NCBI GenBank assembly: GCA_016933055.1
Contig: JAFGBS010000004.1
Coordinates: 394,972-426,971 of the forward strand
From: Promethearchaeota archaeon
Lineage (GTDB): Archaea; Asgardarchaeota; Lokiarchaeia; Sigyniarchaeales; Promethearchaeaceae
DNA length: 32,000 nt
Direction of reading: 5' to 3'
The notes under the pieces were generated by a model. It was not told where the DNA came from. It searched no databases and saw nothing but the letters and a program-made list of their open reading frames with translations. This document shows positions 4,581 through 24,137 of the stretch, piece by piece. Positions within the stretch are counted from its first letter, which is position 1. Each line of letters begins with the position of its first letter. The position numbers and the translations under genes were made by a program.

Positions 4581-5579
4581 TCACTTAATGGTCATTAACA
4601 TTTTATCTTCACCTAATACAACGGGACCAGAAAATATTTTTTTAACGCCTTTAAGATACTTCCTTTTTATCATCCAGTTGAGTATAGGAGGTGTAACATG
4701 AACTAGTACTAATTTTTTCGCACCAGCTTCATGTGTGAGGGTTGCTGCTTGGATGGGACTCATGTGATAGTTCTGGATATCTGTTGTTATTTTAGCAAAT
4801 CTGAAAAATCCTAAATTTGCATTTGCTACTGATAATAACCCAGCAGCTTCATGTAATATGGCATTACTAATGATTAGATCTGCGTTCTTGCATAATTTGT
4901 GCATCCACGGATGATAATTCGTGTCTCCCAGAATTACAATGTGTTTCCCATGAATATATATACGGTAGCTAACGGCTGGTTTGACAGGACCATGATCAGC
5001 TTCCCATGCATGAATATTGAAGGTTTCATCAGTGTAGACTCTGACAGATTCCGAAGGAAGTTCTGGTGTACCTTTCAGAGGCAGGGAAATTGGTTTGGGA
5101 ATTAACTGGGATGCTTCTATAGGCATAATTTCTTCGCCATGATGAAGGATACGGTATCTAAAATCGTGTGAATACGCTTTTGAATAGCCATCTACAATGT
5201 CTTGGACTCCTTCTGGTCCATAAATTTCCAATGGAATGGTTCTACCTTGCACCCATGAACCAAATGCAGTTTCTCCCAAATCAGCGATGTGATCAGAATG
5301 AAAATGGGTAAGAAAAATAGCCTTTAAATTTGCCCGAGGTAATTTCATTAAATCTGCATTTCGCCAAACTCCTGATCCACAGTCAAATAGCATAAACTTA
5401 TCATCACTAATGATACCTATACCTGTAGCACCGATCCGTTTGGAGTTATTCATAGGACCACCAGTGCCAAGAAGAGCAATGTGTATGGCTGAAGACGGAG
5501 AATTTTCAATTTGGGAATTTGAGCTCTTTTTAATACGATTTTTGATGAAATTCAAAAGTTTGTAATTTCGATTTCCCAT
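4581..5579 (-). CDS. MBL-fold metallo-hydrolase, RNase Z/AtsA-like family
   Basis: LLGTGGP start of fold, FDCGSG, THFHSDH (HxHxDH), DHGP, GDT and LVHV metal-ligand motifs. Confidence 0.88.
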   Translation of the reverse strand: MGNRNYKLLNFIKNRIKKSSNSQIENSPSSAIHIALLGTGGPMNNSKRIGATGIGIISDDKFMLFDCGSGVWRNADLMKLPRANLKAIFLTHFHSDHIADLGETAFGSWVQGRTIPLEIYGPEGVQDIVDGYSKAYSHDFRYRILHHGEEIMPIEASQLIPKPISLPLKGTPELPSESVRVYTDETFNIHAWEADHGPVKPAVSYRIYIHGKHIVILGDTNYHPWMHKLCKNADLIISNAILHEAAGLLSVANANLGFFRFAKITTDIQNYHMSPIQAATLTHEAGAKKLVLVHVTPPILNWMIKRKYLKGVKKIFSGPVVLGEDKMLMTIK

Positions 5580-5676
5580 AAATACTATTTGTGAGTAAGT
5601 CGTTAAATTTCCAACCTTTTTAAGCGGTTTCTATCATGGCAATTTTTGTCAAAACTAATGCTATCTGCCATTAAAC

Positions 5677-5684
5677 CTTATATA
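5677..5684 (+). promoter_or_regulatory. Candidate archaeal TATA box for the downstream structured RNA
   Basis: CTTATATA would put a start near 5708-5712, just before the first long helix (5717). No + strand ORF follows. Confidence 0.45.
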
Positions 5685-5709
5685 TGTATAATAGAGAAAA
5701 TGAAAAATA

Positions 5710-6385
5710 GGATTTTATTAATCAATATCTATCTGAGTTCTTAAGGCTCCGTTGGTAACGCAATCCATGTGTGTTTAACGTATTTTAGCGTAAAACGTCA
5801 AACCCGTTATCTAAAGCAAATTCAGTGGGTTTAGGTGTTCCGTTTTCCAAAAGTGCAATAATTTGCAGATAGGATACGAAAGCAGATACATTCCTACGAG
5901 ATACAGCGTAATACCTCTTTTTTCCTTCCGTGAGAGATATTAATAAACGTAATTCAGAAGTGCGGGTAGGTGGTGGGAATAAAGGAGCCCAAAGGCGAAT
6001 GCGTAGCATGAGCCTACTAGATAGTATGCAGAACCCGATAGGTATTGGAGGGGTTAACCCGAACCCTTTGGACCGAAGTACGTACTAGTAGTATCGATTC
6101 ACCCGAACCAAAAATTTTTGGATTAGGTAGGATAGATATTGATTAATCAATTTCGTACACATTACCCTAATCCGTACGAACTACGCTAAAAGCCTAGCCA
6201 TGGGATAATTGGGATAGGTTCTTTTGGCGTAGGGGTGCCTAATACCCATGAAATTTATCTATGGTTATCCCAACGAAAACCCTATTTGGGTAACGATTTA
6301 CCGTAGAAATAGGATAAAGTGAGAAACATGCCATAGAGGGAGCCCAATTCAGCATGTAGAATTTGGGATAATTCACGAATTTTAA
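5710..6385 (+). ncRNA. Candidate large structured non-coding RNA of unknown class (~680 nt)
   Basis: Perfect 17-bp helix 5717-5733/6131-6147; 12-bp 6181-6192/6221-6232; 10-bp 6264-6273/6363-6372 enclosing hairpins 6281-6313 and 6326-6357; 7-bp 6152-6158/6174-6180; 8-bp 6120-6127/6166-6173; 8-bp 6048-6055/6062-6069. G-U wobbles fit the + strand. No credible ORF. Confidence 0.7.
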
Positions 6386-6454
6386 AAAAAAATACTTACC
6401 AATTTTAAGCGTGTTTGTTTTAAAACGTGAATAATTATCATATCAAGATCTTAG

Positions 6455-6660
6455 ATGTTGTTTAGTCGATATTTTATTCAAGAACCCCATAATGAGGATG
6501 TGCTGCAATATGCACCGGGATCTTGGGAACCTAAGCACTACAAGACAAATTAGAAGAACTTAAACACCAATGTATTGATATACCATTAATCATTGGGGGA
6601 AAGAAATACATACAGAGACTAAAATTAATTTCGCAACAAAAAGAGTGCTTGAAATTTTAT
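6455..6660 (+). pseudogene. pruA: 5' fragment of a 1-pyrroline-5-carboxylate dehydrogenase gene
   Basis: MLFSRYFIQEPHNEDVLQYAPGSWE, then a frameshift to ALQDKLEELKHQCIDIPLIIGGK, matching the PxNEPVxxYAPGS...IDIPLIIGGK N-terminus of P5CDH. The rest is missing. Confidence 0.65.
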
Positions 6661-6971
6661 TTCTAAAAAAACGCTCCTATCCACTATCTTATTATTAAAT
6701 TCTTGAACCTTCGGAATTGTGGATCCAGAGATAATTTTTCTTGTACTACGTTCATGGGAAAACGGAATATTTTAACAATCTTATAGGTTAGTGGTCTGTC
6801 AATTTTCGAGTAATTAACTTAAGTTTCGCCATTTATCTTGACATTCGGATTAAATGTGTTGTTTAAATACCTCTTTAGAAAAAGGAAATACCCTTCGGGT
6901 GTCAAAAAAGAATTTGAATACCCATTCTAGTAAAATGAATATCCTTATTAATCATACGGATATACAATATC

Positions 6972-7223
6972 ATGATGTCGCACCCCACTATTTCCATTGT
7001 TAACCGTAAGGGTATGGTTACTATCCCCTCCAATCTTCGAAAAAAGTATAATCTACAAGAGGGATCAGAAGTGGCCTTTCTAGATATCATGGGGAATTTA
7101 GTTCTTGTTCCAATTTTATCAATTGAGGAAATACGGAAGCAGATGCCGCCTGCAAAGGAGATGTTGAAATCCTACGAAGAATCCCGCAAACAGGAGATAC
7201 AATTGGAAAATAAACGCCTGTGA
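6972..7223 (+). CDS. AbrB/MazE/SpoVT family antitoxin
   Basis: SIVNRKGMVTIPSNLRKKYNLQEGSEVAF is a typical AbrB swapped-hairpin pattern; 4-nt overlap with the PIN gene. Confidence 0.88.
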   Translation: MMSHPTISIVNRKGMVTIPSNLRKKYNLQEGSEVAFLDIMGNLVLVPILSIEEIRKQMPPAKEMLKSYEESRKQEIQLENKRL

Positions 7224-7654
7224 AAGCCATGAAAAAGAAGATTTGCATAGATACTGGGATAATGACCCAATATATTTCTTCAAGTCCTCCGGAACCGATT
7301 GTTAATATAATAAACCGAGTGATCAAGAGAGAAATTGAATGCTATATTCTTAAATCCGTGCTTATTGAGGTGTATTATCAAATATGTAAATGGAAAGGCA
7401 TTGAATTTGCTCGTAATGCATTAACTTCTTTCCAAAAAACCGTACCTTTTGTCCCCGTAGAATTAGATGATGGGTTAATCCAAACTGCCGGGATACTAAA
7501 GTGTCAGCATCGAACTACATTATCCTATATTGATTGTATGAGTATATCTTATTGTATAAATAACAAAATGGAATTTCACACTACCGAGAAAACCTTGAAA
7601 GGAATACAAGACGACACTTTGAACAAACTAAAAGTGAAAAAATATCGATTTTGA
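7220..7654 (+). CDS. vapC: PIN-domain toxin (VapC-like)
   Basis: ICIDTG, VLIEV and LSYIDCMSI acidic PIN motifs; coupled to the AbrB gene. Confidence 0.82.
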   Translation: MKAMKKKICIDTGIMTQYISSSPPEPIVNIINRVIKREIECYILKSVLIEVYYQICKWKGIEFARNALTSFQKTVPFVPVELDDGLIQTAGILKCQHRTTLSYIDCMSISYCINNKMEFHTTEKTLKGIQDDTLNKLKVKKYRF

Positions 7655-7709
7655 TGCACTGGATGGTAATTTTCAGAGTAATCAAATCAAGTTTCATCAT
7701 TAAGATATA

Positions 7710-8050
7710 ATCGCTATTCAACCTCCGCGGTGGGTAACCGATACGAATCAATCTCTCATGGGATGAATTTTCTAATTATATCGATCGATACATACACATT
7801 ACGACACATAATTATTCTTTTCATTTTAACTCAAGGGAAGTCTCATCCTTCCAGAAACCCAAGACGAAAACCTCTACCACACCTTATCCACGAATGCGGA
7901 AGTATTGCGTATCTATCATATGATTAAAATGACTGAAGCGCAAGGTCTTAATGTCCTTTATGAGTATTTGGAGCAAATGATGAATGATGCAAAGAAAACT
8001 GATGCATCTAAAACACTGAAGAATTTAGCTTCGGATCACGAGAAAAATGT
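7710..8050 (+). pseudogene. Internal fragment of a Hef/FANCM-like helicase gene (covers part of track ORF 7905..8132)
   Basis: NAEVLRIYHMIKMTEAQGLNVLYEYLEQMMNDAKKTDASKTLKNLASD resembles the Hef insertion domain (KLxHAxELLETQGxxxLxxYLEKL). The upstream part is frameshifted and no helicase motifs are present. Confidence 0.42.
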
Positions 8051-8221
8051 GGAAGAAGTGCGTATCTTGGGGATTCTGGGTATAGTGGATAGGTTGTTTT
8101 ACTCTTTCTCTATTCCAATGGATACTCTTTAAGGCAGCATAAAAAGCCTTTGACATAATATCCTCTGACTAATTATTTTAGAAAAAAGAATTTTGTGAGT
8201 CTTTCAAGTACCATTAGATTT

Positions 8222-9055
8222 CTAGTCCTTCACGATGTGCCATCCGCATGTGTGGCAAAACGTGGCATCCGGAAGTAATTTTGTTCCGCATTTGATACAG
8301 AATCGTCCTGATTGGCTTTCATAAGGTGAGTATGTAGGGTCCTCTTCTGGAGGAGGATAATATTGAGGGGAGCCTTCTACCACCGGTTCGGTAATTCTCG
8401 AAATTAATGGTATTTTTTTGATGTTCGCACCTGTTATGAAATATCCGATAACGGAGATGACTGTTTTTGCTAATCCCAAAATTAGAATAACAACTAGCAT
8501 TACATCAATAGCAAACACAAAGACTGAAAGTATATCAAATGCTACAAATGCTATTCCGATTCCTGCTCCTATCGCAAGGAGCGTAGTTCCGTTCCGAATC
8601 TTTGCTTCGATTGGGGGACGGAGGGTTGCGCCATATTTTCCCAATCTAATCCACGCGATGATTTCAAAAATATACACGATAAGATACAATATATCGTAGA
8701 TAATCAAGCAATTCAACCAATTATGTGCATCCCACACAACTATATATGCAATATAATAGAAGACATTTGCAATTAAGGTGAGTATAAAAAACCCAATTAA
8801 CATGGAATAATATCCACTGAACGTATTGAGATTTAGAATCGTTTTGATCTTCTGATTATTAATTACCAGCACAATCAGTAGAATTACAGTTGTCACATCT
8901 AACAGTACTTGCAGAAAAAATCCTTCAAATCCTAAGAGTCCTAAAATAAATCCCAAGGCAAAACTTGCAATAGGCAATATTCCCAAGATAATTAACAAGT
9001 TTCCGAATTGCTCAAATCTTGGGGGATCTGGGTATGGTTGATACGTCATCTTCAT
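8222..9055 (-). CDS. Multi-pass membrane protein with C-terminal zinc ribbon
   Basis: About six TM segments, a Pro-rich linker, then CIKCG...FCHTCG. Confidence 0.85.
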   Translation of the reverse strand: MKMTYQPYPDPPRFEQFGNLLIILGILPIASFALGFILGLLGFEGFFLQVLLDVTTVILLIVLVINNQKIKTILNLNTFSGYYSMLIGFFILTLIANVFYYIAYIVVWDAHNWLNCLIIYDILYLIVYIFEIIAWIRLGKYGATLRPPIEAKIRNGTTLLAIGAGIGIAFVAFDILSVFVFAIDVMLVVILILGLAKTVISVIGYFITGANIKKIPLISRITEPVVEGSPQYYPPPEEDPTYSPYESQSGRFCIKCGTKLLPDATFCHTCGWHIVKD

Positions 9056-9449: not shown

Positions 9450-10739
9450 TTATAGATTTTCGCTACTGGCGGGTGGAGTTTTTTCACTCGGAGGTTGGGT
9501 TGTATGAATCTCATCAAATTTAAAGATAGGAGTCGATAAACCTAGGATTATGAAAGAAATTATGGAAAGTATTGGTGTCAAGATAAATTGGAACCAAATC
9601 CCCGTAAATTCTGCAAGTGCTCCCCAAATAATTAAACCTAATGGCATAATTGATTTAATAAGGGTAAATAAACTGGAAAATATCCGACCTTGATATTCTC
9701 GCGGAATAACGATTTGTAAAATAGTGATCAATTGCGTGTCGATAAAAGTTATACACAATCCCAGAACAAACCCCACTACATAAATCGCCCAAAAATTCCA
9801 AGAAACCGTATTTGGAATTGCTGCGAGTGCTAAAAGCACGAATGAGTTTATAAATGCCCAGATAACCACCCCTTTCATTTTTGGCTGTTTTTTAATTAGC
9901 ATCAAGATTAGTCCCCCGATAAAAAACCCTACTTGAACAGAAGCCATCAAAAAACCAAATTCTCGTTCAAGTCCACCGTGATAATTTTGTAATAATAAAG
10001 GTAAAAGGCTAAACAAGGGAACCACAAAGAAATTGGCTAATCCAAATAGGATAAAAGGTGGTATTAATTTTGTTTCATGCATATATCGGACAGAAATTTT
10101 GAAATCCTCAAGAAAATGAAGTTTTCCGGTGCCTTGTGTTGCTACCCTTGGAATTTTCACGATTAACAATACAATCAGAGTCGGTACACACGTAATTACA
10201 TCAAACCAATAAATCTGGTTAATCGGCATAATTTGTATGAGGAATGCTCCGGCTATTGGGGTAACAATTGAGAGAAGTGCCATAAAAACCCGATCGAAAG
10301 CATTTATTTTTTGAATAAACTTCTTGGGCACCATTAAAGAGTTTAGACTAACTGCAACCGGCATCTGGAACCCTTGACATATTCCTCTAATTCCCATAAG
10401 AACTAAAATCTGCCAAATTTCGAAAATTCCGAAAAAGAAAAGCATTATCAGCACAAAAGTAGCAAATGCTTGAACCGCATCAGAAATGAAAAGAATTTTG
10501 TTCTTGGATCGCCGATCTGCAATCACCCCAGCAAAGGGGGATACAAGTATCATCGGCACCATATTCGATATGGTTGATAAAGATAGAATCAGAGAACTTC
10601 CTGTTTCGATTGTCAGAAACCATGTCACACTAAAGGATACGAGTTGAGAACCAATTAAAGAAATGTACTGAGTAGCCCATAACCATAAAAATTGCTTAAA
10701 AGTCTTTCTTGGGATGGACACTTCATTTAAGTTTTCCAT
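9450..10739 (-). CDS. MFS transporter (MefA/EntS-like efflux family)
   Basis: LWATQYISLIGSQL, motif A GVIADRRSK, REYQGRIFS, about 12 TM. ATG 10739 is preferred over the track start at 10811. Confidence 0.9.
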   Translation of the reverse strand: MENLNEVSIPRKTFKQFLWLWATQYISLIGSQLVSFSVTWFLTIETGSSLILSLSTISNMVPMILVSPFAGVIADRRSKNKILFISDAVQAFATFVLIMLFFFGIFEIWQILVLMGIRGICQGFQMPVAVSLNSLMVPKKFIQKINAFDRVFMALLSIVTPIAGAFLIQIMPINQIYWFDVITCVPTLIVLLIVKIPRVATQGTGKLHFLEDFKISVRYMHETKLIPPFILFGLANFFVVPLFSLLPLLLQNYHGGLEREFGFLMASVQVGFFIGGLILMLIKKQPKMKGVVIWAFINSFVLLALAAIPNTVSWNFWAIYVVGFVLGLCITFIDTQLITILQIVIPREYQGRIFSSLFTLIKSIMPLGLIIWGALAEFTGIWFQFILTPILSIISFIILGLSTPIFKFDEIHTTQPPSEKTPPASSENL

Positions 10740-10789
10740 ATGTATACCAAGAATTCCCGAATAAATATCCTTCGATATGTTATGCAGTG

Positions 10790-10975
10790 GAGATGTTGCT
10801 AGCGAATGCAAAATCCAAAGTACAAAATGCTACCTTCTTTCAAGCTAAAGCAGAATTATTATCCTTCGATTCAGAGTACTTCGATTACCTTTATTGTTCT
10901 TTCGCGTTTCATCATTTTACCAATGATGCTTAGGTACTCCAGAAGATGTATCGGGTATTAATGCCACTCGGGGAT
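10790..10975 (+). pseudogene. Fragment of a class I SAM-dependent methyltransferase gene
   Basis: EMLLANAKSKVQNATFFQAKAELLSFDSEYFDYLYCSFAFHHFTNDA*VLQKMYRVLMPLG. UbiE-like C-terminal motifs with an in-frame stop; motif I is missing. Confidence 0.7.
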
Positions 10976-11215
10976 TGCTAAAAAACATTACCACAAGTTC
11001 TGAATTTCTGGATGGCCGGTATATCAATCAATTCTTTCCCGAATCCAAAAAAATTGACATTGATAGATGTGGAAAGCTACTTAGATTTTATAATCATTAG
11101 ATCGGTTGGATTAGCCTTCACTCATGCGAATTTTTTTTCCGAGTGTCTGTTTATACAGCCATTGTTTCACCATTCTTAAATAGATATATATGTATGCATA
11201 GTGGTTTGCGATAAT

Positions 11216-12832
11216 ATGGATGCATTCCGGTATTCTTTATATATATCTGTAGGATTCGGGCTGTTGGTCTTTATTTGCTGCTTATTAAGTTCAAAAAAAA
11301 GGGCTGATTACGAGGATTATAGAAGGGAAAAATGGAACAAATATGTTTCTTTTCAAGACCCCGAGCTAAGAAAATCCTTGGAACACGATATCATTGTATC
11401 AACAGATGAAGAATTTGAGGCATTTTTGGTTTCTTTGCGTTCTTCGGTCAAGTATAGACGGGATAAAAACGGTTTACGCATTAGAAAAAACATATGCATG
11501 TTTATCAACAATATCTGGATGAATTCGTATTCGGAAAAAGGTAGAAAAATTTACAAACGATTGAAAAAACTAGAAGAAATTGTCCCATTACTCAAACGAG
11601 TTTATTTTGGGCCTAAATACACCCCCATTATTTATCGAGAACGAAAATATGAGAAATCCTATCAAAGGCGGAAGTTTAATTTCCCGCTCCAACCGGATTC
11701 CACGGCTCCAAAACTCGATACAATAATTGATGTAGCATATCACCTTCAAACCTCAATTCGCTTGATTCTTGCCATTATTTATACTCAATCGCATTCACGC
11801 GATCGTAATTATGTTAAAATCACTCAAATCGACAAGGCTTTGCATCAAAAGGGGAACTCTTACCTTAGGGTGGTTGGTTCTCCTATAGCTAGACATGTGG
11901 ATATTGATCAATCATTCATCTTAAAGGACAAGAGGGGAAAGGTCCCTAAAAACGCAAAAACAACCGATCCACAAGATGCTTATTTAGAATATAAAGAACT
12001 GGATAGTAATTTTTATACACGGAAAACGTTAGTAAAACCTAATGGCAGAAAACGATTAATAGCCGTTCCCAATGAGAAATTGCGATCCTTCCAGCGAATT
12101 ATCCTCAAGACTATTCTTGAAAAGGCAGCCCTTCCTGATGTGTGTACGGGTTTTACAAAGACTCGTTCTACCGTGACCAATGCAGAATTTCATGTGGGTG
12201 CGCAAACTCTAGTAAAAGTTGATTTGCATAATTTTTTCAATAACTTGTCTCTTGACCATGTATTTGAGGTATTCCGAGGATTTGGATATAATCGTCCTGT
12301 TTCGGGGATTTTGGCAAATTTATGCACGGATTATTACAGAAGTCGTCGGTATTTACCTCAAGGAGCATCTACAAGTCCCATGATTGCGAATCTGTACGCA
12401 TTGCATTTAGATAGACGTCTAGAAGGACTTGCGAACAAGTATGATTTGATCTACTCTCGATATGCAGATGATCTCACCTTTTCTTCTAAGGATCCCAAGA
12501 TTCGTGTAAGAACCTTTATCCAAGCGGTATACAAAATCATAAAAAGTGAAAAATTATACCCGAATTATCAAAAAACCAAAGTATATCGCAAGCAGCATAA
12601 AAAATCTGTTACGGGTATCACAGTAAATGAGAAAGTGAACATTGATCGAAAGTGGGTAAACGCATTTCGGGGTGAACTCTATCGCTATTCAAAATTCGGT
12701 GTGCCGGAAGAAGATAGGTTTAGAATCGTGCATCAAATGCACGGAAAATTTGCCTTTCTGAAAATGGTTAATCCTGAAGTTGCAAAGAAATATGAGACAC
12801 AAATATCCAAATTCATTGCTGAAAATTCATGA
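11216..12832 (+). CDS. Retron-type reverse transcriptase with N-terminal transmembrane helix and long extension
   Basis: KPNGRKRLIAVP, NAEFH (retron NAxxH), KVDLHNFF, LPQGASTSP, YADD, VTGITVN (retron VTG). Hydrophobic stretch YSLYISVGFGLLVFICCLL at the N-terminus. ATG 11216 lies ~25 nt after TATATA (11185-11190); the track uses GTG 11201. Confidence 0.92.
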   Translation: MDAFRYSLYISVGFGLLVFICCLLSSKKRADYEDYRREKWNKYVSFQDPELRKSLEHDIIVSTDEEFEAFLVSLRSSVKYRRDKNGLRIRKNICMFINNIWMNSYSEKGRKIYKRLKKLEEIVPLLKRVYFGPKYTPIIYRERKYEKSYQRRKFNFPLQPDSTAPKLDTIIDVAYHLQTSIRLILAIIYTQSHSRDRNYVKITQIDKALHQKGNSYLRVVGSPIARHVDIDQSFILKDKRGKVPKNAKTTDPQDAYLEYKELDSNFYTRKTLVKPNGRKRLIAVPNEKLRSFQRIILKTILEKAALPDVCTGFTKTRSTVTNAEFHVGAQTLVKVDLHNFFNNLSLDHVFEVFRGFGYNRPVSGILANLCTDYYRSRRYLPQGASTSPMIANLYALHLDRRLEGLANKYDLIYSRYADDLTFSSKDPKIRVRTFIQAVYKIIKSEKLYPNYQKTKVYRKQHKKSVTGITVNEKVNIDRKWVNAFRGELYRYSKFGVPEEDRFRIVHQMHGKFAFLKMVNPEVAKKYETQISKFIAENS

Positions 12833-12851
12833 AACAAAAAAGAAAAAAGAA

Positions 12852-12986
12852 GTCCCTGCCAACAGATTTATGTTTTACCCTTGGTAAAATTCAACGAAAG
12901 ACGCTTATTTCGTTGAATATTGTTGATAATGTACATGTTCGTAGTCCACCACGATGGTTCATCGCAGCTCATTAGACGCCAGGGAC
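12852..12986 (+). ncRNA. Candidate retron msr-msd RNA located downstream of the RT
   Basis: Terminal inverted repeat GTCCCTG (12852-12858)/CAGGGAC (12980-12986); adjacent perfect hairpins TTTTACC/GGTAAAA (12873-12889) and ATTCAACGAAA/TTTCGTTGAAT (12889-12918); imperfect hairpin region 12927-12974. Confidence 0.6.
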
Positions 12987-13542
12987 ATAATATTCATACT
13001 TTCTATACTTTTATGCATAATTATTATTCTATTATTAAATAATCCTCAAAAGAAGCGATTCTCTTCTTTCAATATCTTAAGCTTTAGGACTCCTGCGTCT
13101 TATAGGTTTTAACCAGTGAAATATGGATTTTAGTTTAACTGGAACATCCGACATCGAACCGCAACCTTAGAGGTCTTTATAATCAATTGCGCGATTTTGC
13201 AAATCGTCTTTCTTTAACGAAAATATCCCAAATAATTTGCGTGCACCAATTGTGTTCCCAGCAATATTCCTGTCTTCATAAATATTCAGAAAGTGATTTT
13301 TAAGCAGTTAAGGCATAAAATGAGAATATCACAATACCAGGGAGAAACTGAATAAACTATGCCCAGAAATTTGCCATAGCTATTCCCAGATTTCCTGAAT
13401 ATATACCATTCGATATAAGGTTTATAAATTATCTGGTTACCCGCAATCTATTCGACTATTTACCTATGCACAATATTTCAACCACGGAAGAAAAAGAAAA
13501 TAGAGAGAATTGGGATGGACAGGTATACTTTCTTCCTCTCGA

Positions 13543-14844
13543 TTAGGTCTTAATCAGCTTCTTTCCCTTCAAGAGGTAAGGCGTGAATTTAATCAAAGAA
13601 GGACATACATACGAACACAATCCACAATCGATACAAACCTCGACGTGCAATTTTTTCAACAAAGTTACGTTTTCTTTTTTGGTTGCTTCCATGATCAATT
13701 GCGGATAAATATCAACCGGACACACGATATTGCAATAATTGCACCGAATACATGGAATCTCATCTGCGTAGGGTTTTGATCGGTCTTTAGAAAACCCGGT
13801 AATGGCGGTCGTCCCTTTTTCTATCGGAATATTTAAACTTTCGAGAGATGGTCCCATAAAAATGGAACCCATAATGGTTTTTTCAAATATCGTGGGAGAT
13901 ATGTTCAAAAAGTTGAAGATATGTTCAATTGGCGTACCGATTCGTACCCATAAGTTTTCTCCACCTGTTTGTTCGGAATAAAAGGTAATTCCGCGTGATA
14001 CTAACGGCAGTCCTTCATAAACCGCTTCATAAACCGCGTAAACTGTTGCAATATTGTGCACTACTATACCAATCTCTGGAGGATAATGCCCTTGCGGAAC
14101 TTCGTAACCCAATATCTCCTTGATGAGTAATTTTTCGCTTCCAATAGAATAGTTGGGACGCATCCGAACTACTCGAATGCCATGTTCTTGCAATATTGCA
14201 TCTAAATGAGGGGTCATTCCCTCTTTAGTCCGGGTAGCAACTATTATATCATGCACGTTTAAGATTTTGGCCATTACTTGGATACCCTTAAGTACTTCAT
14301 CAGGTTTTTCCACCATTAATCGATAATCAGATGAGGTGTTAGGATCGCTTTCTTTGGCATTAATTATCAGATTAGTAATACGGTTAGGGGTTCCTAACTT
14401 AAGATGAGTGGGGTAGGTTGCCCCTCCTAACCCTACGATGCCTGCTTTTTTCACACGATTAAGGAGATCTTCCTTGGATGCAGTCTCGGGATTCAATTTT
14501 TCGAATACTTGATTGGTTTTTGCATCTTCGGTTTGGATTTTTATGATTTGCTCTACCTTATTTGAAAACGGATTCTTTTGGGTGGTGATATCTATAACTT
14601 TCCCGTTTACGGGACTATGAACGGCTGCATAAACTTTTTGATTTTCTTCTAAATCTCCGAGTATTTGACCAAATTTAACTGAATCGCCTATTTGAACTTG
14701 AGGTTGTGTTGGAACCCCCAAATGTTGTTTTAAATACACACTCATAATTTCTGCGGGGGGAACGATCTTGACGGGTTTTTCTGCAACGCTTTCTTTTATC
14801 CCCAGTGTAATCTCAAATCTTCCTTTTTCTTTGAAACTTTTCAT
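13543..14844 (-). CDS. rnfC: RnfC/RsxC-like NADH/FMN-binding Fe-S subunit
   Basis: LKQHLG, VHSPVNGKV, GIVGLGGATYPTHLK, GSEKLLI, and two CxxCxxCxxxCP ferredoxin motifs (CIRCNYCNIVCP, CIDCGLCSYVCP). Confidence 0.9.
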   Translation of the reverse strand: MKSFKEKGRFEITLGIKESVAEKPVKIVPPAEIMSVYLKQHLGVPTQPQVQIGDSVKFGQILGDLEENQKVYAAVHSPVNGKVIDITTQKNPFSNKVEQIIKIQTEDAKTNQVFEKLNPETASKEDLLNRVKKAGIVGLGGATYPTHLKLGTPNRITNLIINAKESDPNTSSDYRLMVEKPDEVLKGIQVMAKILNVHDIIVATRTKEGMTPHLDAILQEHGIRVVRMRPNYSIGSEKLLIKEILGYEVPQGHYPPEIGIVVHNIATVYAVYEAVYEGLPLVSRGITFYSEQTGGENLWVRIGTPIEHIFNFLNISPTIFEKTIMGSIFMGPSLESLNIPIEKGTTAITGFSKDRSKPYADEIPCIRCNYCNIVCPVDIYPQLIMEATKKENVTLLKKLHVEVCIDCGLCSYVCPSLIKFTPYLLKGKKLIKT

Positions 14845-15890
14845 CTTAGGCTCCTCCTTTGTTTCTTCGATTTGAACCCGTACGGTTTCCGAAATCCGAT
14901 TTTGTCCAAGAAAGGTGTCGCTAAATTTAATAATACGAGTGCGAAAATGGATCCTCCCAGCACATTCAAAAGTTGCAAGAAAAACGTGATCACTGCTAGG
15001 GCAACTCCAAAAATTATTTGAGATATTTCCGGGAGGGGCGTCGATTGAGGTTCTGTCGCCATAAAGAATACCATGAAGATAAAACTCCCCGTGAATACGT
15101 GAAAACTAATCCGTAACAGTATATCATCTCTTACAATTAACCCAAACACTACGGCTAAGCCGATCATGGTCAATAGTGCACTACCCACTATACGCCATTT
15201 ATATCGTAACCACACAACAGCGATGGATCCTACAATTAATACTAAAATCCCGCAGGCACCTCCGATCCATCCATGAGTTTGCCAAAATAAAAGGCTGGCG
15301 GTAGCGGATAAGTCCCGACCAAAAATTGTTACTCGTTGAAAGATCCACATAGATGCTTCGAATCCTTCAGCGGTCCAAAGATTAAGATCTAAGTGATGCG
15401 GGTGAAATAGCTGTCCAATTGAAAGAGATTCCTCCCAAAATAGCATGATTGACAATAACCCTAACAGTACTGTTTTCGCTCCCGCGGCAGGATTAATGTA
15501 TTTTCGGATAAACAACCAGTTTTGTCCAAATTTGAAAACAAGAACTGTGACCAAAGCTACTGCGGCGGTGATATAAAAGGGACCGGCAATAGGCATTGCT
15601 AACCCTACAATCATTCCTGCAACCAGTGTTGACGTGTAAGAATCATACGATACGGGTTTTTTTTTCCATTTTTGAAAGGATATTATTAAGGTGTGAATGA
15701 CGAAAACCGTACCTAAGGCTGTAAGAATATGAATTAACGCATTTATCCCCATGATTATACTGGAGCCGATCGCTATGATACTCAGCATGAGAAAGGTTTT
15801 TAGCATTAGTTCATCCTTGGAAAATCCCATGTGAATATGGGGAGGTCGAATTCCTTCAAATTGCATGGGTGATCTCTCTTCTACGGTCAT
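14841..15890 (-). CDS. rnfD: RnfD/NqrB-like membrane subunit
   Basis: PPHIH N-terminus, STLVAGMIVGLAMP, NPAAG, FFMATEPQSTP, LLNLATPFLDK; 4-nt overlap with rnfC. Confidence 0.87.
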   Translation of the reverse strand: MTVEERSPMQFEGIRPPHIHMGFSKDELMLKTFLMLSIIAIGSSIIMGINALIHILTALGTVFVIHTLIISFQKWKKKPVSYDSYTSTLVAGMIVGLAMPIAGPFYITAAVALVTVLVFKFGQNWLFIRKYINPAAGAKTVLLGLLSIMLFWEESLSIGQLFHPHHLDLNLWTAEGFEASMWIFQRVTIFGRDLSATASLLFWQTHGWIGGACGILVLIVGSIAVVWLRYKWRIVGSALLTMIGLAVVFGLIVRDDILLRISFHVFTGSFIFMVFFMATEPQSTPLPEISQIIFGVALAVITFFLQLLNVLGGSIFALVLLNLATPFLDKIGFRKPYGFKSKKQRRSLR

Positions 15891-17454: not shown

Positions 17455-19554
17455 CTAATGGTTCATTTTCAACTTCCTATATGCAATGTAGATACCTAAA
17501 CCGATTATACATACAATAATTGGAATATTATACCCAGGGACCCTATTCGGGGATGCAGGAGTTTTTATCTCGAAAAAGTCGCTGTAAGCATAGATTAACG
17601 GGTCTAACATGTTGATTATTTTAATTCGATATTGAGTAGAATCACTCAAGCCCGATGGTACAAACCAGTAAAACTCGCCGTCATTCAAGGTGCTTGAAAC
17701 AATTTCCATCACAAAAGCCTCTCCTATATATAATTCGAGTTTCACATTAGAAATATTTCCTGTAGAAGTCCAATTAATATAATGAGAGCTTTCAAGGTTC
17801 CATGAACTGGATGAGGATGGATTAAGTATGTTCAAGGTCTTCGAAATTACCACATTAACTTCTATACATGGCGATAGTGTATTGCCATTGTTATTTGAGG
17901 CTTTCACTATGAAATAATACGCACTATCAGAGTATCCATTCAATGGCAAAGATAAATCGGTAGTATCTTCTAAAAGAAGAGTGAGACTCCCGTTTATTTC
18001 TGAAATATGCCCGGAATGTTGATATACTGTATAAGTATTTACCCATGTGGAACTCGTCCATGAAAGGGTAAAAGATCCGTCTGTATCAGGAGAATCGGCA
18101 TTGCTTGTTAGATCGAAAGGGCCGGGTACGGGTAGAGGACCACCATCCGTAATTATCCAGCTATATGTATCAATAATGTGCTGACGGGAAGTCTCTGCAA
18201 CATTGCTATAAAAAGAATTTCCTCCATCGAATTCTACTCCGGAAATCAAAGTTAACTGAGACCACCCTATCAATAAGTTATCATAATTATTAGGAGAAAG
18301 AAATGCGCTCTTGAACATATAGTTCATAGACGTGACGCTGGATACATCCCAATTCCCGATGGGTTGATTGAAGGATGATGCTGCATAGAACATCGCGGAT
18401 GTACTTATTACACTAGACACATCCCAATTCCCAATGGGTTGATTGAAGGACGATGCACTAAAGAACATCCCATACATAGTCACGACGCTGGATACATTCC
18501 AATTCCCGATGGGTTGATTGAAGGATGATGCAGCATAGAACATATAGTTCATAGACGTGACGCTGGATACATTCCAATTCCCGATGGGTTGATTGAAGGA
18601 TGATGCACCATAGAACAAATAGCTCATACTCATCACACTGGATACATCCCAATTCCCAATGGGTCGATTAAAGGAAGATGCACCTTCAAACATACGCAGC
18701 ATACTCGTTACACTGGATACATTCCAATCTCCAATGGGTTGGTTGAAGGACGATGCATATTGAAACATATAGTTCATAGTTGTTACACTGGATACGTTCC
18801 AATTCCCGATGGGTTGGTTGAAAGACGATGCATCATCGAACACCCCATACATATCCGTTACGCTGCATACATCCCAATTTCCGATGGGTTGATTGAAAGA
18901 TGATGCACCACTAAACATCGATTGCATACTTATTATACTGGACACATCCCATCCATTCATATCCCCACTACTACCGAGATCATAACAGTTTCTAAATGCC
19001 CACGATAAGCTAGTTGTACCAGTCAAATCTAGATTGTCACTTGCCGTTAAAACTAAATTGGAACAGCCGTAAAAATAACTACCTGAATTTCCTAATCGTA
19101 AACTGCCCCATTGTTGAATTTCAATGAGTTTTAATCGATCTCCTCCGTTAGCGAACCGCCAACCGATTATCATACCCGTAATATTTACAGTATATACTCC
19201 CGAGGATAAATAGGTGTGGGTTACTTCGGTTTGGTTCCATGATATGATTATATCGCTATCCCCATCGCCCCATTCTACCAAAAAATTGTAAATGCCACTC
19301 GATTGCAGAGGTAAGTGCACTTGGTTGCTGCTACTGGAACCCGTGCTGGTCTTGGTGGTATCCCACACCGATATAAAGTCATTCGGACCTCCGGTATCTG
19401 GTAAGGTAAAATCTACATGGTCTGAGTTTGGTTGATACGACGGCCTCCTTAGAATGGAGAATGCCGACACAGAGAGAATCAACGCTATACACCACACTAT
19501 TCCAACAAGCATCCCAATTTTTTTATTTTCTTTGCCTTTTTTCATTTTTAACAT
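17455..19554 (-). CDS. DUF285/BspA-like leucine-rich-repeat surface protein with Ig/Fn3-like modules and Loki-CTERM-like tail
   Basis: N-terminal TM; 25-aa repeats [25 protein letters not shown]; Fn3-like and Ser/Thr-rich domains; C-terminal [25 protein letters not shown]. Confidence 0.9.
18310..18985 (-). repeat. Coding 75-bp tandem repeat, about 9 units
   Basis: The GGATACATyCC-like anchor recurs at 18340, 18415, 18490, 18565, 18640, 18715, 18790, 18865 and 18940 (75-nt period). Confidence 0.92.
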
Positions 19555-19901: not shown

Positions 19902-20312
19902 TTATAAAGAATCACAACTAAAATCATTCTTATTTTCCGTTTCACCGCTTTCTTTGCAATAATCGCAAATGATTTCGATCAACCAATCAAAAACTGTGGG
20001 ACCAAGACCATTTTGTGCCTTCTCTAAATCCTCTTTAATGTGGGCAATATTATTGGGATCACATGTTTCCAAACGCTCAGATAATTGTCGGACAGTCTCC
20101 TCATAACCAAGTCGCTGTTGTGAGACCGCTATATTTTTCCAAATAATATGATACCCTTGCGCTGGTAGAATATCTGAATGGAATAGTTCGTCAAATGCAT
20201 CCAAATTGCGTCCCCACCATGATGGAAGGGAGAATACTGTAGAAATATGGTCATAGAATTCTTCTAATGTACTAAATTTGCTACCATCGATGATGAAAAT
20301 CGGGATACCCAT
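19902..20312 (-). CDS. Barstar family protein
   Basis: IIDGSKFSTLEEFYDHISTVFSLPSWWGRNLDAFDELF barstar signature. Confidence 0.85.
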   Translation of the reverse strand: MGIPIFIIDGSKFSTLEEFYDHISTVFSLPSWWGRNLDAFDELFHSDILPAQGYHIIWKNIAVSQQRLGYEETVRQLSERLETCDPNNIAHIKEDLEKAQNGLGPTVFDWLIEIICDYCKESGETENKNDFSCDSL

Positions 20313-22282: not shown

Positions 22283-22519
22283 CTATCTTCTCTTTTTTTC
22301 GTCTTTTATACTTCTTTCTTGAGTCGAATCTAAAATTCGCGCTATTTTTAATGCTTGCTCTAAGGAAACTTGAGAGCGTTCTTCATCTCGCAATTTCAAA
22401 GACAATTCTGAAATCGCAATAGATACGTGATAATTTTGAGTACGATTCCCTATCTTTAATGCTTGTACAGCAGTGGTTTGTGTTTCATCTCGTTCAAACA
22501 GTCTTTTTATCGTGCTTAT
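22283..22519 (-). pseudogene. 78-codon helical ORF without ATG, in frame with the downstream nuclease
   Basis: ISTIKRLFERDETQTTAVQALKIGNRTQNYHVSIAISELSLKLRDEERSQVSLEQALKIARILDSTQERSIKDEKKRR*. It begins at ATA and is separated from the nuclease frame by three stops within about 12 codons. Confidence 0.35.
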
Positions 22520-24137
22520 GTTCTCTCTTTTTTCTTCGACCGACTGAACTGATAAGAATCGAAATTGACAATAACGCAGTGCACCCGATGATTACATACC
22601 AAAATGGTGGAAGTCCCGTAGTATCATCTTCTGAAGTTCTATGGAACAAATCCTCCATTGCTTGAACAAATGCAAGTTTAAAATACGGGGGTATGGAACT
22701 TGCTGCATCAGTTTTACAAAATGATTGACCTGCGGGTTTGATATTCACTCCTGAGTATGCGAGTGAGGATTGTACATAATTCACAATCGGATTCGATATA
22801 TATTTGTGGCTAGAGGCTAGAGATACGCTGTACAGAGTAGAACTGATTCGAGGATAACTATGCCAGTGATTGGCTTCAGCAATGGTATGAGTATGCATTG
22901 GTACTTTATAGTAACGGTGCACATGCTCTTCATTTCCTCCTATCGTGCCTATTAATGAATCATTAGCGGTAGCGAGAACGAATCTATTAAAGATTGATGT
23001 ATTCGATGTACCTTTGTATTGGGAAGTAAATTCCGGTATTTCATGCACACCATCAGCCCACCAGAAAATTGAATTATTAGGTAAATAGGAAGTTGACTCA
23101 TTTGTCGTAATAAATGACATCCGGAAGTAGGGAGGATTAGTTTCAGTATCATAGGTCACACAATTCAAATCTCCCGATTCCATTATAGTTATACCACTAG
23201 TTGTTGGATTTGTATAATCTATCTGGGTCAAAATACCGAGTGTTGATACGTCTGAACCCGGTACAATATCCTCACTAATTCGTGAGACGCCCAACTCATG
23301 ATGATGGGGATCTACATCTACCTCATGATCATGCAAAGGTAAATCGGAATAAGAATGGTTATGTAAGGCATTTCCTCCCAATAATTGGATTTGATCCTGC
23401 TTATTGGTGGAATAAATGAACCTATTCGTAAGATTTGAAGAAAATAATGAACCATTGCATAAAATCCATCCATTAGGAATTGTATCATACGATTCAACCC
23501 AGCCAAGAATTGAATGTGCTGGCAAAACTGCCTCTCCATCATCTGGCGCAATTTTCATAATGTAGGCTAATCTTATATACATGGGTAATGAACTGGATTC
23601 ATCGGAAACACAATCTTCGACTCCTGCTGGATATAGATAGAAATCAATTTTGGAAGAGGAGGTTTCCGTCGCCATCGAGTAATCATAGGAGCGATCAATA
23701 CCAGTTACCACATTAGATTCTGCTCTGGGTCCCGCAGTTCCATCTTTTTCGTACAGCCAATGTCTATGTCCTGGATCGTTTTTCACGTGGTTGTGATACG
23801 GTAATTCGTCATACGGATGAGAATGATTTATGGATCCACCCGTTTCTCCGGGATTTTCAAATTCCCCTACGCTCATAATAAATTTGTCTGTTAAGTTGGG
23901 TGTACCATTTGCACCATCACAGAGTGCCCACCCTTCGGGGATTGAACTGAGATTTCCATTCCATAGCACAATTATTCCGGTCAAATCAGAAGGTAAAAAA
24001 TTTCCATTGGAATTGGAAATAGAAAGCGTTTCTAACTTAAAATTATTGGAATCGGAAACATAATGACCCAGAACAGGAAGGAAACATAGTAAAAGGATAA
24101 GTGCCGTAAATTTTACGGAGCATTTTATTTTTTTCAT
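22494..24137 (-). CDS. Secreted, C-terminally anchored protein with three tandem phage tail-collar/HxH units
   Basis: Signal peptide; three units of pattern Px(x)xxIxxW...IPxGWxxCxG...NLTxxF...GG...HxH...P.HxH...HxH...PPYxxLxxI; C-terminal TM followed by RRKKR. Confidence 0.82.
   Translation of the reverse strand: MKKIKCSVKFTALILLLCFLPVLGHYVSDSNNFKLETLSISNSNGNFLPSDLTGIIVLWNGNLSSIPEGWALCDGANGTPNLTDKFIMSVGEFENPGETGGSINHSHPYDELPYHNHVKNDPGHRHWLYEKDGTAGPRAESNVVTGIDRSYDYSMATETSSSKIDFYLYPAGVEDCVSDESSSLPMYIRLAYIMKIAPDDGEAVLPAHSILGWVESYDTIPNGWILCNGSLFSSNLTNRFIYSTNKQDQIQLLGGNALHNHSYSDLPLHDHEVDVDPHHHELGVSRISEDIVPGSDVSTLGILTQIDYTNPTTSGITIMESGDLNCVTYDTETNPPYFRMSFITTNESTSYLPNNSIFWWADGVHEIPEFTSQYKGTSNTSIFNRFVLATANDSLIGTIGGNEEHVHRYYKVPMHTHTIAEANHWHSYPRISSTLYSVSLASSHKYISNPIVNYVQSSLAYSGVNIKPAGQSFCKTDAASSIPPYFKLAFVQAMEDLFHRTSEDDTTGLPPFWYVIIGCTALLSISILISSVGRRKKREHKHDKKTV

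Follow-up and report, generated by a model that had tools for sequence, protein, structure and literature searches.

What does a membrane-anchored reverse transcriptase (RT) of the retron type do in an archaeon if no gene for an effector protein lies next to it? This question is raised by a stretch of 32,000 nucleotides from a Promethearchaeota archaeon (Lokiarchaeia; Promethearchaeaceae; assembly GCA_016933055.1, contig JAFGBS010000004.1, positions 394,972 to 426,971 of the forward strand), which is called the window in the following and to which all coordinates without a locus name refer. Positions 11216-12832 (+, stop codon included) constitute a single long open reading frame (ORF) that codes for an RT of 538 amino acids; GTG at 11201 is a second possible start. 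An earlier note on this DNA, made from the sequence alone, had interpreted the gene as a one-gene, retron-like defence system. According to the analysis presented here, the feature is a real, lineage-specific retron variant of Asgard archaea that comprises two genes, namely the membrane-anchored RT and a convergent gene for a non-coding RNA (ncRNA) at 12852-12986 (-). It is very probable that the RT and this antisense, msr-msd-like RNA form one retron-type module. To the full reading, which is a two-gene Asgard retron including a role in antiviral defence, we assign a probability of roughly 0.6.

The RT belongs to the retron clade. Its core of fingers, palm and thumb (12005-12829, +) contains NAEFH at residue 322, YADD at residue 416 and VTG at residue 465, i.e. 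the signature on which the earlier note had been based. In an alignment of 21 homologs, no variation occurs in NAxxH, YADD and VTG or in the catalytic residues D336, D418 and D419. Pfam RVT_1 spans residues 274-470 (E 2.5e-26). Among the hidden Markov models (HMMs) of PADLOC, RT_XIII scored best (1.1e-84, 283 bits), ahead of RT_III-A with 251 bits and RT_II-A with 248 bits; all top matches were retron RT models, and models of this kind matched all 21 family members. An AlphaFold2 (AF2) model built on the 21 homologs had a mean predicted local distance difference test (pLDDT) value of 79 and a predicted template modelling score (pTM) of 0.75. When this model was compared to the PDB by means of Foldseek, the top match was the RT of Ec86 (E 1.7e-18, 33% identity, TM-score by target 0.69). 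The next best folds were those of the retron RTs Eco2/Ec67, Eco7/Ec78, Ec83 and Eco8, and the RTs of group II introns, diversity-generating retroelements (DGRs) and DRT systems ranked below them.

A search of 5.8 billion proteins yielded about 21 full-length relatives with 38-50% identity, and those carrying names all originate from metagenome-assembled genomes of Promethearchaeota (Asgard). The architecture seen in the window is found in further Asgard genomes, where the earlier note had proposed to look for it. Next in the ranking, separated by a large score gap, were bacterial retron RTs whose match is confined to the RT half. Of the ten closest bacterial relatives that were checked, eight are bona fide RT_XIII proteins with scores of 460-630 bits. 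For a maximum-likelihood tree, 20 archaeal and 60 bacterial RT sequences were used. The archaeal RTs form a single clade (SH-aLRT 100, stem length 0.92) that is nested in the XIII-like radiation and separated from II-A-like sequences; the forks joining it to the XIII subgroups lack resolution. Thus, PADLOC, the PDB folds and the position of the clade inside the type XIII-like radiation agree in grouping the RT with the retrons.

A profile-profile alignment calculated with hhalign relates residues 129-536 to type XIII positions 117-464 with a probability of 100%. The pre-RT segment (residues 129-195; 11600-11800, +), which contains the motifs VYFGP..., KFxFxLK and P.L..IIDLA..N..VN.LLGY, corresponds in this alignment to type XIII positions 117-175, which belong to the inner portion of the N-terminal extension specific to XIII. 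No type XIII counterpart exists for the first 128 residues, and the outer ~116 amino acids of type XIII remain unmatched likewise. Between the pre-RT segment and the core lies a variable linker (residues 196-263; 11801-12004, +) that is predicted to be disordered (pLDDT <50) and whose length differs by 0-70 amino acids among the homologs. Taken together, the RT lineage is probably an offshoot of the type XIII lineage that was acquired once from bacteria.

The second gene became visible when the spacers between RT and TldD of the homologous loci L002, L092 and L093 were aligned: a block of ~135 nt is conserved, and its surroundings are far less so. The copy of the window (12852-12986, - strand, i.e. 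antisense to the RT; 135 nt) begins 19 nt past the RT stop codon and lies between the RT gene and rnfC. By means of a motif search and covariance model R1, 18 copies were found in at least 13 loci, always 3' of the RT. Outside L082, the gap from the RT stop codon to the first copy is 0-90 nt, and in most loci it is 0-38 nt. The divergent copies of L083 and L095 escaped R1 and were recovered by the motif. Within the family, the matches of the covariance model in all seven genomes adjoin the RT; the five genomes without RT have none. A scan of metagenome contigs added a single family fragment. The element did not match any Rfam family at gathering or E-value thresholds.

Two other candidates near the RT were rejected. 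A perfect 9-nt inverted repeat upstream (11038-11046 with 11252-11260) was considered as a1/a2 pair; however, chance alone would give about one such repeat, the region is taken up by a methyltransferase pseudogene, and the homologous loci have just 36-108 nt upstream of the RT. A small ORF that overlaps the ncRNA (12954-13112) is not conserved, and relatives reach a stop codon after six codons.

The msr-msd of a retron is characterized by two opposing G residues, the arms a1 and a2, one to three msr hairpins and an msd stem-loop (Mestre et al. 2020, PMC7736814). The covarying RNA that co-occurs with the Asgard RT bears every sequence and structure hallmark of an msr-msd: combined with a retron-clade RT are an a1/a2 repeat, opposing G residues, and one or more msr hairpins followed by msd stem-loops. 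On the minus strand of the window, the a1-like 5' arm GUCCCUG (12980-12986) is followed immediately by an invariant G (12979), which is the proposed branching G. Then come the conserved msr-like hairpin of 9 bp with a 3-nt loop (12948-12968), a GGAnUACGAA segment, and the linker AACAAUA (12918-12924), where the conserved 5' half gives way to the variable 3' half. The linker conforms to (A/U)(A/U)ACAA(U/A) in the copies listed, and it is proposed as stop region for cDNA synthesis. The msd-like template region (12859-12917) consists of two abutting, perfectly Watson-Crick paired hairpins and a conserved 3' tail that ends in the opposing G at 12859. The a2-like 3' arm CAGGGAC (12852-12858), which pairs with a1, completes the RNA. 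In some lineages an extra small hairpin precedes the msr-like one, and among the copies the length of the 5' half is 59-133 nt and that of the 3' half 65-136 nt.

This structure has been maintained by compensatory evolution. Across the 18 copies, the terminal stem of 7-10 bp occurs as GUCCCUG/CAGGGAC, AUCCCUG/CAGGGAU, CCUUG/CAAGG, GACUCUG/CAGAGUC and GUAGCUUUG/CAAAGCUAC, and compensatory changes of a1 and a2 were located in L092, L093, L095, L083 and L084. In the covariance-model alignment of 17 distinct copies, 90.8% of the cells pair, compared to about 41% (35-44%) with the partners slid. Both sides have changed in 22 of 33 pairs, and none of 500 shuffles reached the observed covariation. 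In the 3' half, at least two hairpins differ in sequence between loci yet stay perfectly Watson-Crick paired; for helices 3 and 4, a compensatory change was found in all 14 pairs, with almost no G-U. Such pairing is expected if the hairpins have to fold both as RNA and as DNA.

The RNA was read antisense to the RT because of the counts of G-U and A-C pairs and because a TATA-like box and an oligo-T tract fit this orientation. In 15 distinct versions of the conserved hairpin, the antisense strand has 101 Watson-Crick pairs, 29 G-U pairs and no A-C, whereas 29 A-C mismatches result on the RT strand. For the whole structure, the antisense counts are 65 G-U versus 5 A-C, and UG, UA and CG interchange at identical positions of the hairpin. 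On the antisense strand, each of the 18 copies has a G directly past the 5' arm and another directly ahead of the 3' arm; the RT strand has C/C instead. For the copy of the window, the minimum free energy is -42.1 kcal/mol (z -4.5) in antisense and -36.8 kcal/mol (z -3.2) in sense orientation. A TATA-like box, AAAAGTATAG-like, is located 17-30 nt upstream of the 5' end (13003-13016, -) and would be the promoter of the ncRNA; relatives possess boxes of the AAAAATTTAAAT type about 24-36 nt upstream of a1 in most loci. An oligo-T tract directly past the a2 arm (12833-12851, -) is a putative archaeal terminator. Most copies have a T5-T10 run within about 15 nt after a2, which is shorter in L092 and L093.

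The ncRNA gene is duplicated in tandem in L002 (7658-8018), L084 (7334-7721), L097 (1055-1455) and L100 (953-1443). The tandem copies share a near-identical msr half and differ in their msd hairpins. Judging from these sequences, one RT may serve two msDNAs (multicopy single-stranded DNAs), i.e. two templates, in such loci. In L082, two minus-strand ORFs of 85 and 205 amino acids without Pfam match lie between the ncRNA (8716-8907) and the RT (region 7492-8907); they could be lineage-specific partners or an insertion.

The N-terminus of the Asgard protein bears a transmembrane helix (residues 6-26; 11231-11293, +), recognized by its hydropathy, that ends in a conserved Cys or CxC. Its residues 7-25 read SLYISVGFGLLVFICCLLS and have a Kyte-Doolittle 19-mer mean of 2.24. 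The region that follows (residues 27-165) is basic, with 34 K+R versus 19 D+E and a pI of 9.9; the hydrophobic helix of ~19 residues and the basic region of ~140 residues are thus as the earlier note had described them. The anchor is a property of the family: in 19 of the 21 homologs as called, the N-terminal 19-mer hydropathy is 2.0-3.6, and the number rises to 20 of 21 if the truncated gene call P0019 is extended upstream in frame. The remaining homolog, without the helix as called, has 374 amino acids and lies on a short contig. In nearly all homologs the N-terminal flank of the helix is acidic and lacks K/R, and the 15 residues following the helix contain two to six K/R. Due to this charge distribution (positive-inside rule), the helix is predicted to be an N-out/C-in signal-anchor that places the RT in the cytoplasm, and not a Sec signal peptide that is cleaved off. 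The Cys or CxC at the cytoplasmic end of the helix (11270-11293, residues about 19-26) is conserved family-wide and might serve for lipidation, for the binding of a metal or for dimerization via a disulfide.

Residues 27-128 (11294-11599, +) form a family-specific, basic alpha-helical domain for which AF2 predicts four or five helices with pLDDT values of 81-95. A profile of residues 28-195 gave 19 matches at E <= 0.001 among 1.84 billion representative proteins, and it recovered only members and fragments of this RT family plus a few marginal matches. In Pfam, the sole match of the domain was to NEPRO_N; at 16 bits, below the cut-off of 24.9, this identity was rejected. No PADLOC model matched the domain in four of five members, and the ARM and WH-SWIM models were not matched. 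The ESM Atlas gave no usable match, the best E-value of Foldseek against the PDB was 0.73, and an exhaustive VIA-align scan reached a best Z of 6.9 with generic helical repeats, which is within the noise of helical proteins. The alignment of the 21 homologs contains no invariant acidic, His, Ser or Cys residues in this domain that would point to catalysis.

A protein gene common to the 12 homologous loci examined was not found; this result covers neighbours of the RT, and no genome-wide search for genes co-occurring with the RT was run. The earlier note had spoken of a one-gene system without separate effector gene. Its second half holds for these loci, as no conserved effector protein gene was detected, and its first half has to be revised due to the ncRNA gene downstream. 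The flanking genes in the 12 loci code for cupin, TldD/PmbA, TPR, alcohol dehydrogenase, sulfatase, EamA, NUDIX, PPDK, GDSL lipase, 12TM_1/ABC and EF-G-like proteins. Subclades share their gene order, namely cupin-RT-TldD in L002, L092 and L093 and RT-12TM_1-ABC in L086 and L094. This synteny indicates vertical descent and not hopping between defence islands. The 151 genomes of the order that were scanned include 13 others from the window's family, 8 of which contain full-length relatives; one genus has the RT in 4/4 genomes, and another, with genomes that are 87-93% complete, in 0/3. From a larger second family, only 4 of 132 genomes gave matches, which were restricted to the RT domain. At least three of these four RTs are canonical XIII-like proteins with a bacterial-type cytosolic N-terminus and without transmembrane helix.

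On the basis of these findings, the following mechanism can be proposed. The ncRNA would be transcribed convergently to the RT as an independent gene from its own TATA-like box and up to its oligo-T terminator. The RT would bind the ncRNA, with the conserved msr hairpin serving as recognition hairpin, and would prime from the 2'-OH of the invariant G at 12979. With the variable hairpins as template, it would then synthesize an msDNA, about 65 nt long here and up to about 135 nt in relatives; the msDNA predicted for the window is the + strand from 12859 to about 12924. The RNA-DNA hybrid would be held by the RT at the inner face of the membrane. As in bacterial retrons, antiviral surveillance is the most likely function: a disturbed msDNA-RT complex might signal through the built-in anchor and helical domain, which would replace a separate effector protein. 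The N-terminal module may be such an output device or a mere tether. That the module is itself the effector is a tentative idea and rather doubtful. Similarly speculative is a self-contained, effector-less retron, in which the anchor and the helical domain generate the output as an msDNA-gated membrane lesion or a signal, and in which the ncRNA is independent and duplicable.

Several points weigh against a two-gene retron with a role in defence. All steps beyond the folding of the RNA, be it msDNA, transcript or phenotype, are inference, and we only infer the defence function of the system. A canonical msr-msd lies upstream of the RT, on the same strand, and is co-transcribed with it; this gene order was not found here, where the RNA lies 3' of the RT in convergent orientation, with an antisense structured strand. 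In principle, the G-T wobbles might stem from selection acting on a folded cDNA and not on an antisense RNA. In L082 the ncRNA is 1.27 kb away from the RT, and for the lineage of L004 and L101 R1 detected no ncRNA in the 8-10 kb available. The N-terminal domain has neither a catalytic signature nor a fold relative, and a single transmembrane helix is a weak effector candidate. Moreover, the loci are not defence islands; their housekeeping neighbours and their synteny suggest long vertical inheritance, which is atypical for defence genes, although type XIII retrons, too, are reported to be passed on vertically.

The last point is also the starting point of an alternative that we consider improbable, namely that a domesticated retron provides a membrane-tethered RT-msDNA particle for a cellular role other than defence, e.g. 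for membrane-associated handling of nucleic acids. The stable chromosomal positions, the synteny within subclades, the housekeeping neighbours, the presence of the RT in all four genomes of one genus, a GC content equal to that of the host and the lack of a recognizable effector domain are in line with such a role. However, the distribution in the family is patchy, with a complete absence from one genus, and the tandem ncRNAs with their diversified msd hairpins resemble the variation of an arms race. Furthermore, we know of no retron with an established non-defence role, which additionally argues against domestication.

It is likewise unlikely that RT and ncRNA are merely the sensor half of a system whose effector is encoded elsewhere and acts in trans, such that the transmembrane helix would only localize the complex. 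Known retrons are tripartite (PMC7736814), the N-terminal domain is devoid of catalytic residues, and L082 contains, on the ncRNA strand, the two small ORFs of unassigned function between ncRNA and RT. On the other hand, retron effectors are normally adjacent to the RT and co-evolve with it (PMC7736814), and no such gene stands beside the RT in the 12 loci.

Markedly less probable still is that the downstream element acts on the RT strand, either as a template in the 3' untranslated region or as a terminator or stability element, and that the G-T wobbles are due to the folding of cDNA. The element follows the RT stop codon so closely in most loci that read-through of the RT mRNA would include it; in addition, T-rich runs are found 25-35 nt beyond the element on the RT strand, and the a1 arm ends in a TGC triplet on this strand. 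These features have to be weighed against the A-C mismatches in the conserved hairpin, the C/C in place of the G/G hallmark, the promoter-like box and the immediate oligo-T, which suit an antisense RNA, the more stable antisense fold, and the distant copy of L082, which has nevertheless retained its orientation. Finally, a decaying, non-functional relic of a horizontally acquired bacterial retron is most improbable: on the upstream side of the RT the window has a pseudogene and one lineage has no detectable ncRNA, but the ORF is intact in all members over 38-50% identity, the catalytic residues are invariant, the motifs of the N-terminal domain are conserved, and the intact ORFs together with the compensatory evolution of the ncRNA therefore speak for purifying selection.

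How does the two-gene Asgard retron relate to known systems? It most closely resembles type XIII (RT clade 10; Mestre et al. 2020, PMC7736814) with respect to the best HMM, the homology of the pre-RT segment, the placement in the tree and a tendency to vertical inheritance on both sides. For type XIII, a correlation to the 16S of the host, moderate in degree, is suggestive of vertical inheritance, and it has its own ncRNA type (PMC7736814). In contrast, the archaeal RTs reach only ~283 bits with RT_XIII (251 with RT_III-A) and not the 460-630 bits of bacterial members, and their first 128 residues are a transmembrane helix plus an unrelated helical domain. The winged-helix/SWIM and HEAT/ARM partner genes are absent from the flanks of the 12 archaeal loci, and the archaeal ncRNA has no Rfam match and is downstream and convergent. 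In 12 bacterial XIII-like loci no Rfam retron RNA family matched either, so that ncRNA positions are not comparable. Because the partners are absent, the HMM score is marginal and the outer extension has been replaced, the archaeal system was not filed as type XIII.

With Ec86 (Retron-Eco1, type II-A), the Asgard system shares the fold of the RT and the order of a1/a2, inner-stem G, msr hairpin(s) and msd hairpin. Ec86 differs in having a soluble RT of ~320 amino acids, an upstream, co-transcribed ncRNA and a separate effector (complex in PDB 7v9x); compared to it, the Asgard RT has an N-terminal addition of 263 amino acids with membrane anchor, a convergent RNA gene and no effector gene. In type IV (Retron-Eco6/Ec48), a membrane-spanning element is the presumed output as well (PMC8632793). 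However, the 2TM protein of Ec48 is encoded by a separate gene and its RT is from another clade, whereas the Asgard RT itself bears a single transmembrane helix as an N-terminal fusion. A fused module and the lack of a separate effector gene are also typical of the single-gene fusions RT-Toprim (I-C), RT-TIR (XII), RT-protease (XI) and RT-DUF3800 (VII-A1), whose PADLOC models score 133-208 bits against the Asgard RT. There, the fused domains are C-terminal and enzymatic; the Asgard module sits at the N-terminus, is membrane-anchored and is, judged by sequence, non-enzymatic. According to a review, retrons account for only about 4% of the RTs of archaea (PMC8632793). In the literature on Asgard and archaeal retrons and on retron RTs with fused transmembrane segments, this architecture was not found described, although coverage was incomplete and an earlier description is possible.

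The surroundings of the RT in the window agree with what the earlier note had reported, i.e. a methyltransferase remnant and a convergent rnfC. The remnant (10709-11179, +) fills the space directly 5' of the RT; it is a class I gene for an S-adenosylmethionine-dependent methyltransferase that is disrupted by frameshifts, and a fragment of 74 amino acids matches Methyltransf_11 and Methyltransf_25 in Pfam. An MFS transporter gene on the opposite strand is located upstream as well. Downstream, rnfC and rnfD (13543-15890) are convergent with the RT. The genome of 3.76 Mb contains one copy of the RT gene, whose GC content is 0.371, compared to 0.367 for the window. A TATA-like ATATATAT at 11183-11192 precedes the ATG by about 25-30 nt, and this distance suggests that the RT mRNA of this genome is leaderless. 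The relatives differ in this respect by having a GGAG-like motif 7-8 nt ahead of the RT start.

Further genes of the window are not adjacent to the RT. A PIN-domain protein (7220-7654, +) and a Barstar-like protein (19902-20312, -) could belong to the toxin-antitoxin or immunity genes. Positions 17455-19554 (-) code for a large DUF285-repeat protein with a Kre9/KNH-like domain, and positions 22494-24137 (-) for a protein of 547 amino acids with a match to a phage tail-collar domain. The ~1.6 kb from 5580 to 7219 contain no ORF of at least 90 amino acids.

Observations were also made in related loci. In L003, an 806-bp direct repeat with 85.7% identity (4879-5684 and 7817-8621) brackets the RT-ncRNA module. 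It corresponds to the 3' end of the gene for the TPR protein, and both copies stop at the stop codon. A template/variable pair of a DGR was rejected, since the copies differ mainly at third codon positions without adenine bias and since the RT is of the retron type and not of the DGR type. The repeat is an old duplication that may mark how the module was inserted. L104, L105 and L106 from other Lokiarchaeia contain canonical type XIII-like RT ORFs of about 492-496 amino acids with a cytosolic N-terminus of the bacterial type and without transmembrane helix. Downstream of the RTs of L105 (2540-3040) and L106 (2550-2800), there is a different, GC-rich conserved element with a long hairpin and a variable interior, which occurs twice in L105.

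Retrons have been described as tripartite bacterial systems in which an RT is accompanied by an effector and by an ncRNA that lies upstream and is co-transcribed, and they have hardly been studied in archaea. The Asgard system departs from this description in three respects at the same time, with an RT that is anchored in the membrane through an N-terminal fusion, without an effector gene, and with a separate, convergent and duplicable gene for the ncRNA. A template gene that is physically and transcriptionally apart from the RT could suit tools for retron-based production of DNA. If the self-contained reading is true, the system would be the first Asgard-specific functional retron architecture and contain the first membrane-bound retron RT, which could be re-armed with different msDNAs. 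If active, it would be a minimal two-part retron in which the conversion of msDNA status into an output can be studied, and it would open a first way to study retron-based immunity in archaea that are related to the eukaryotes.

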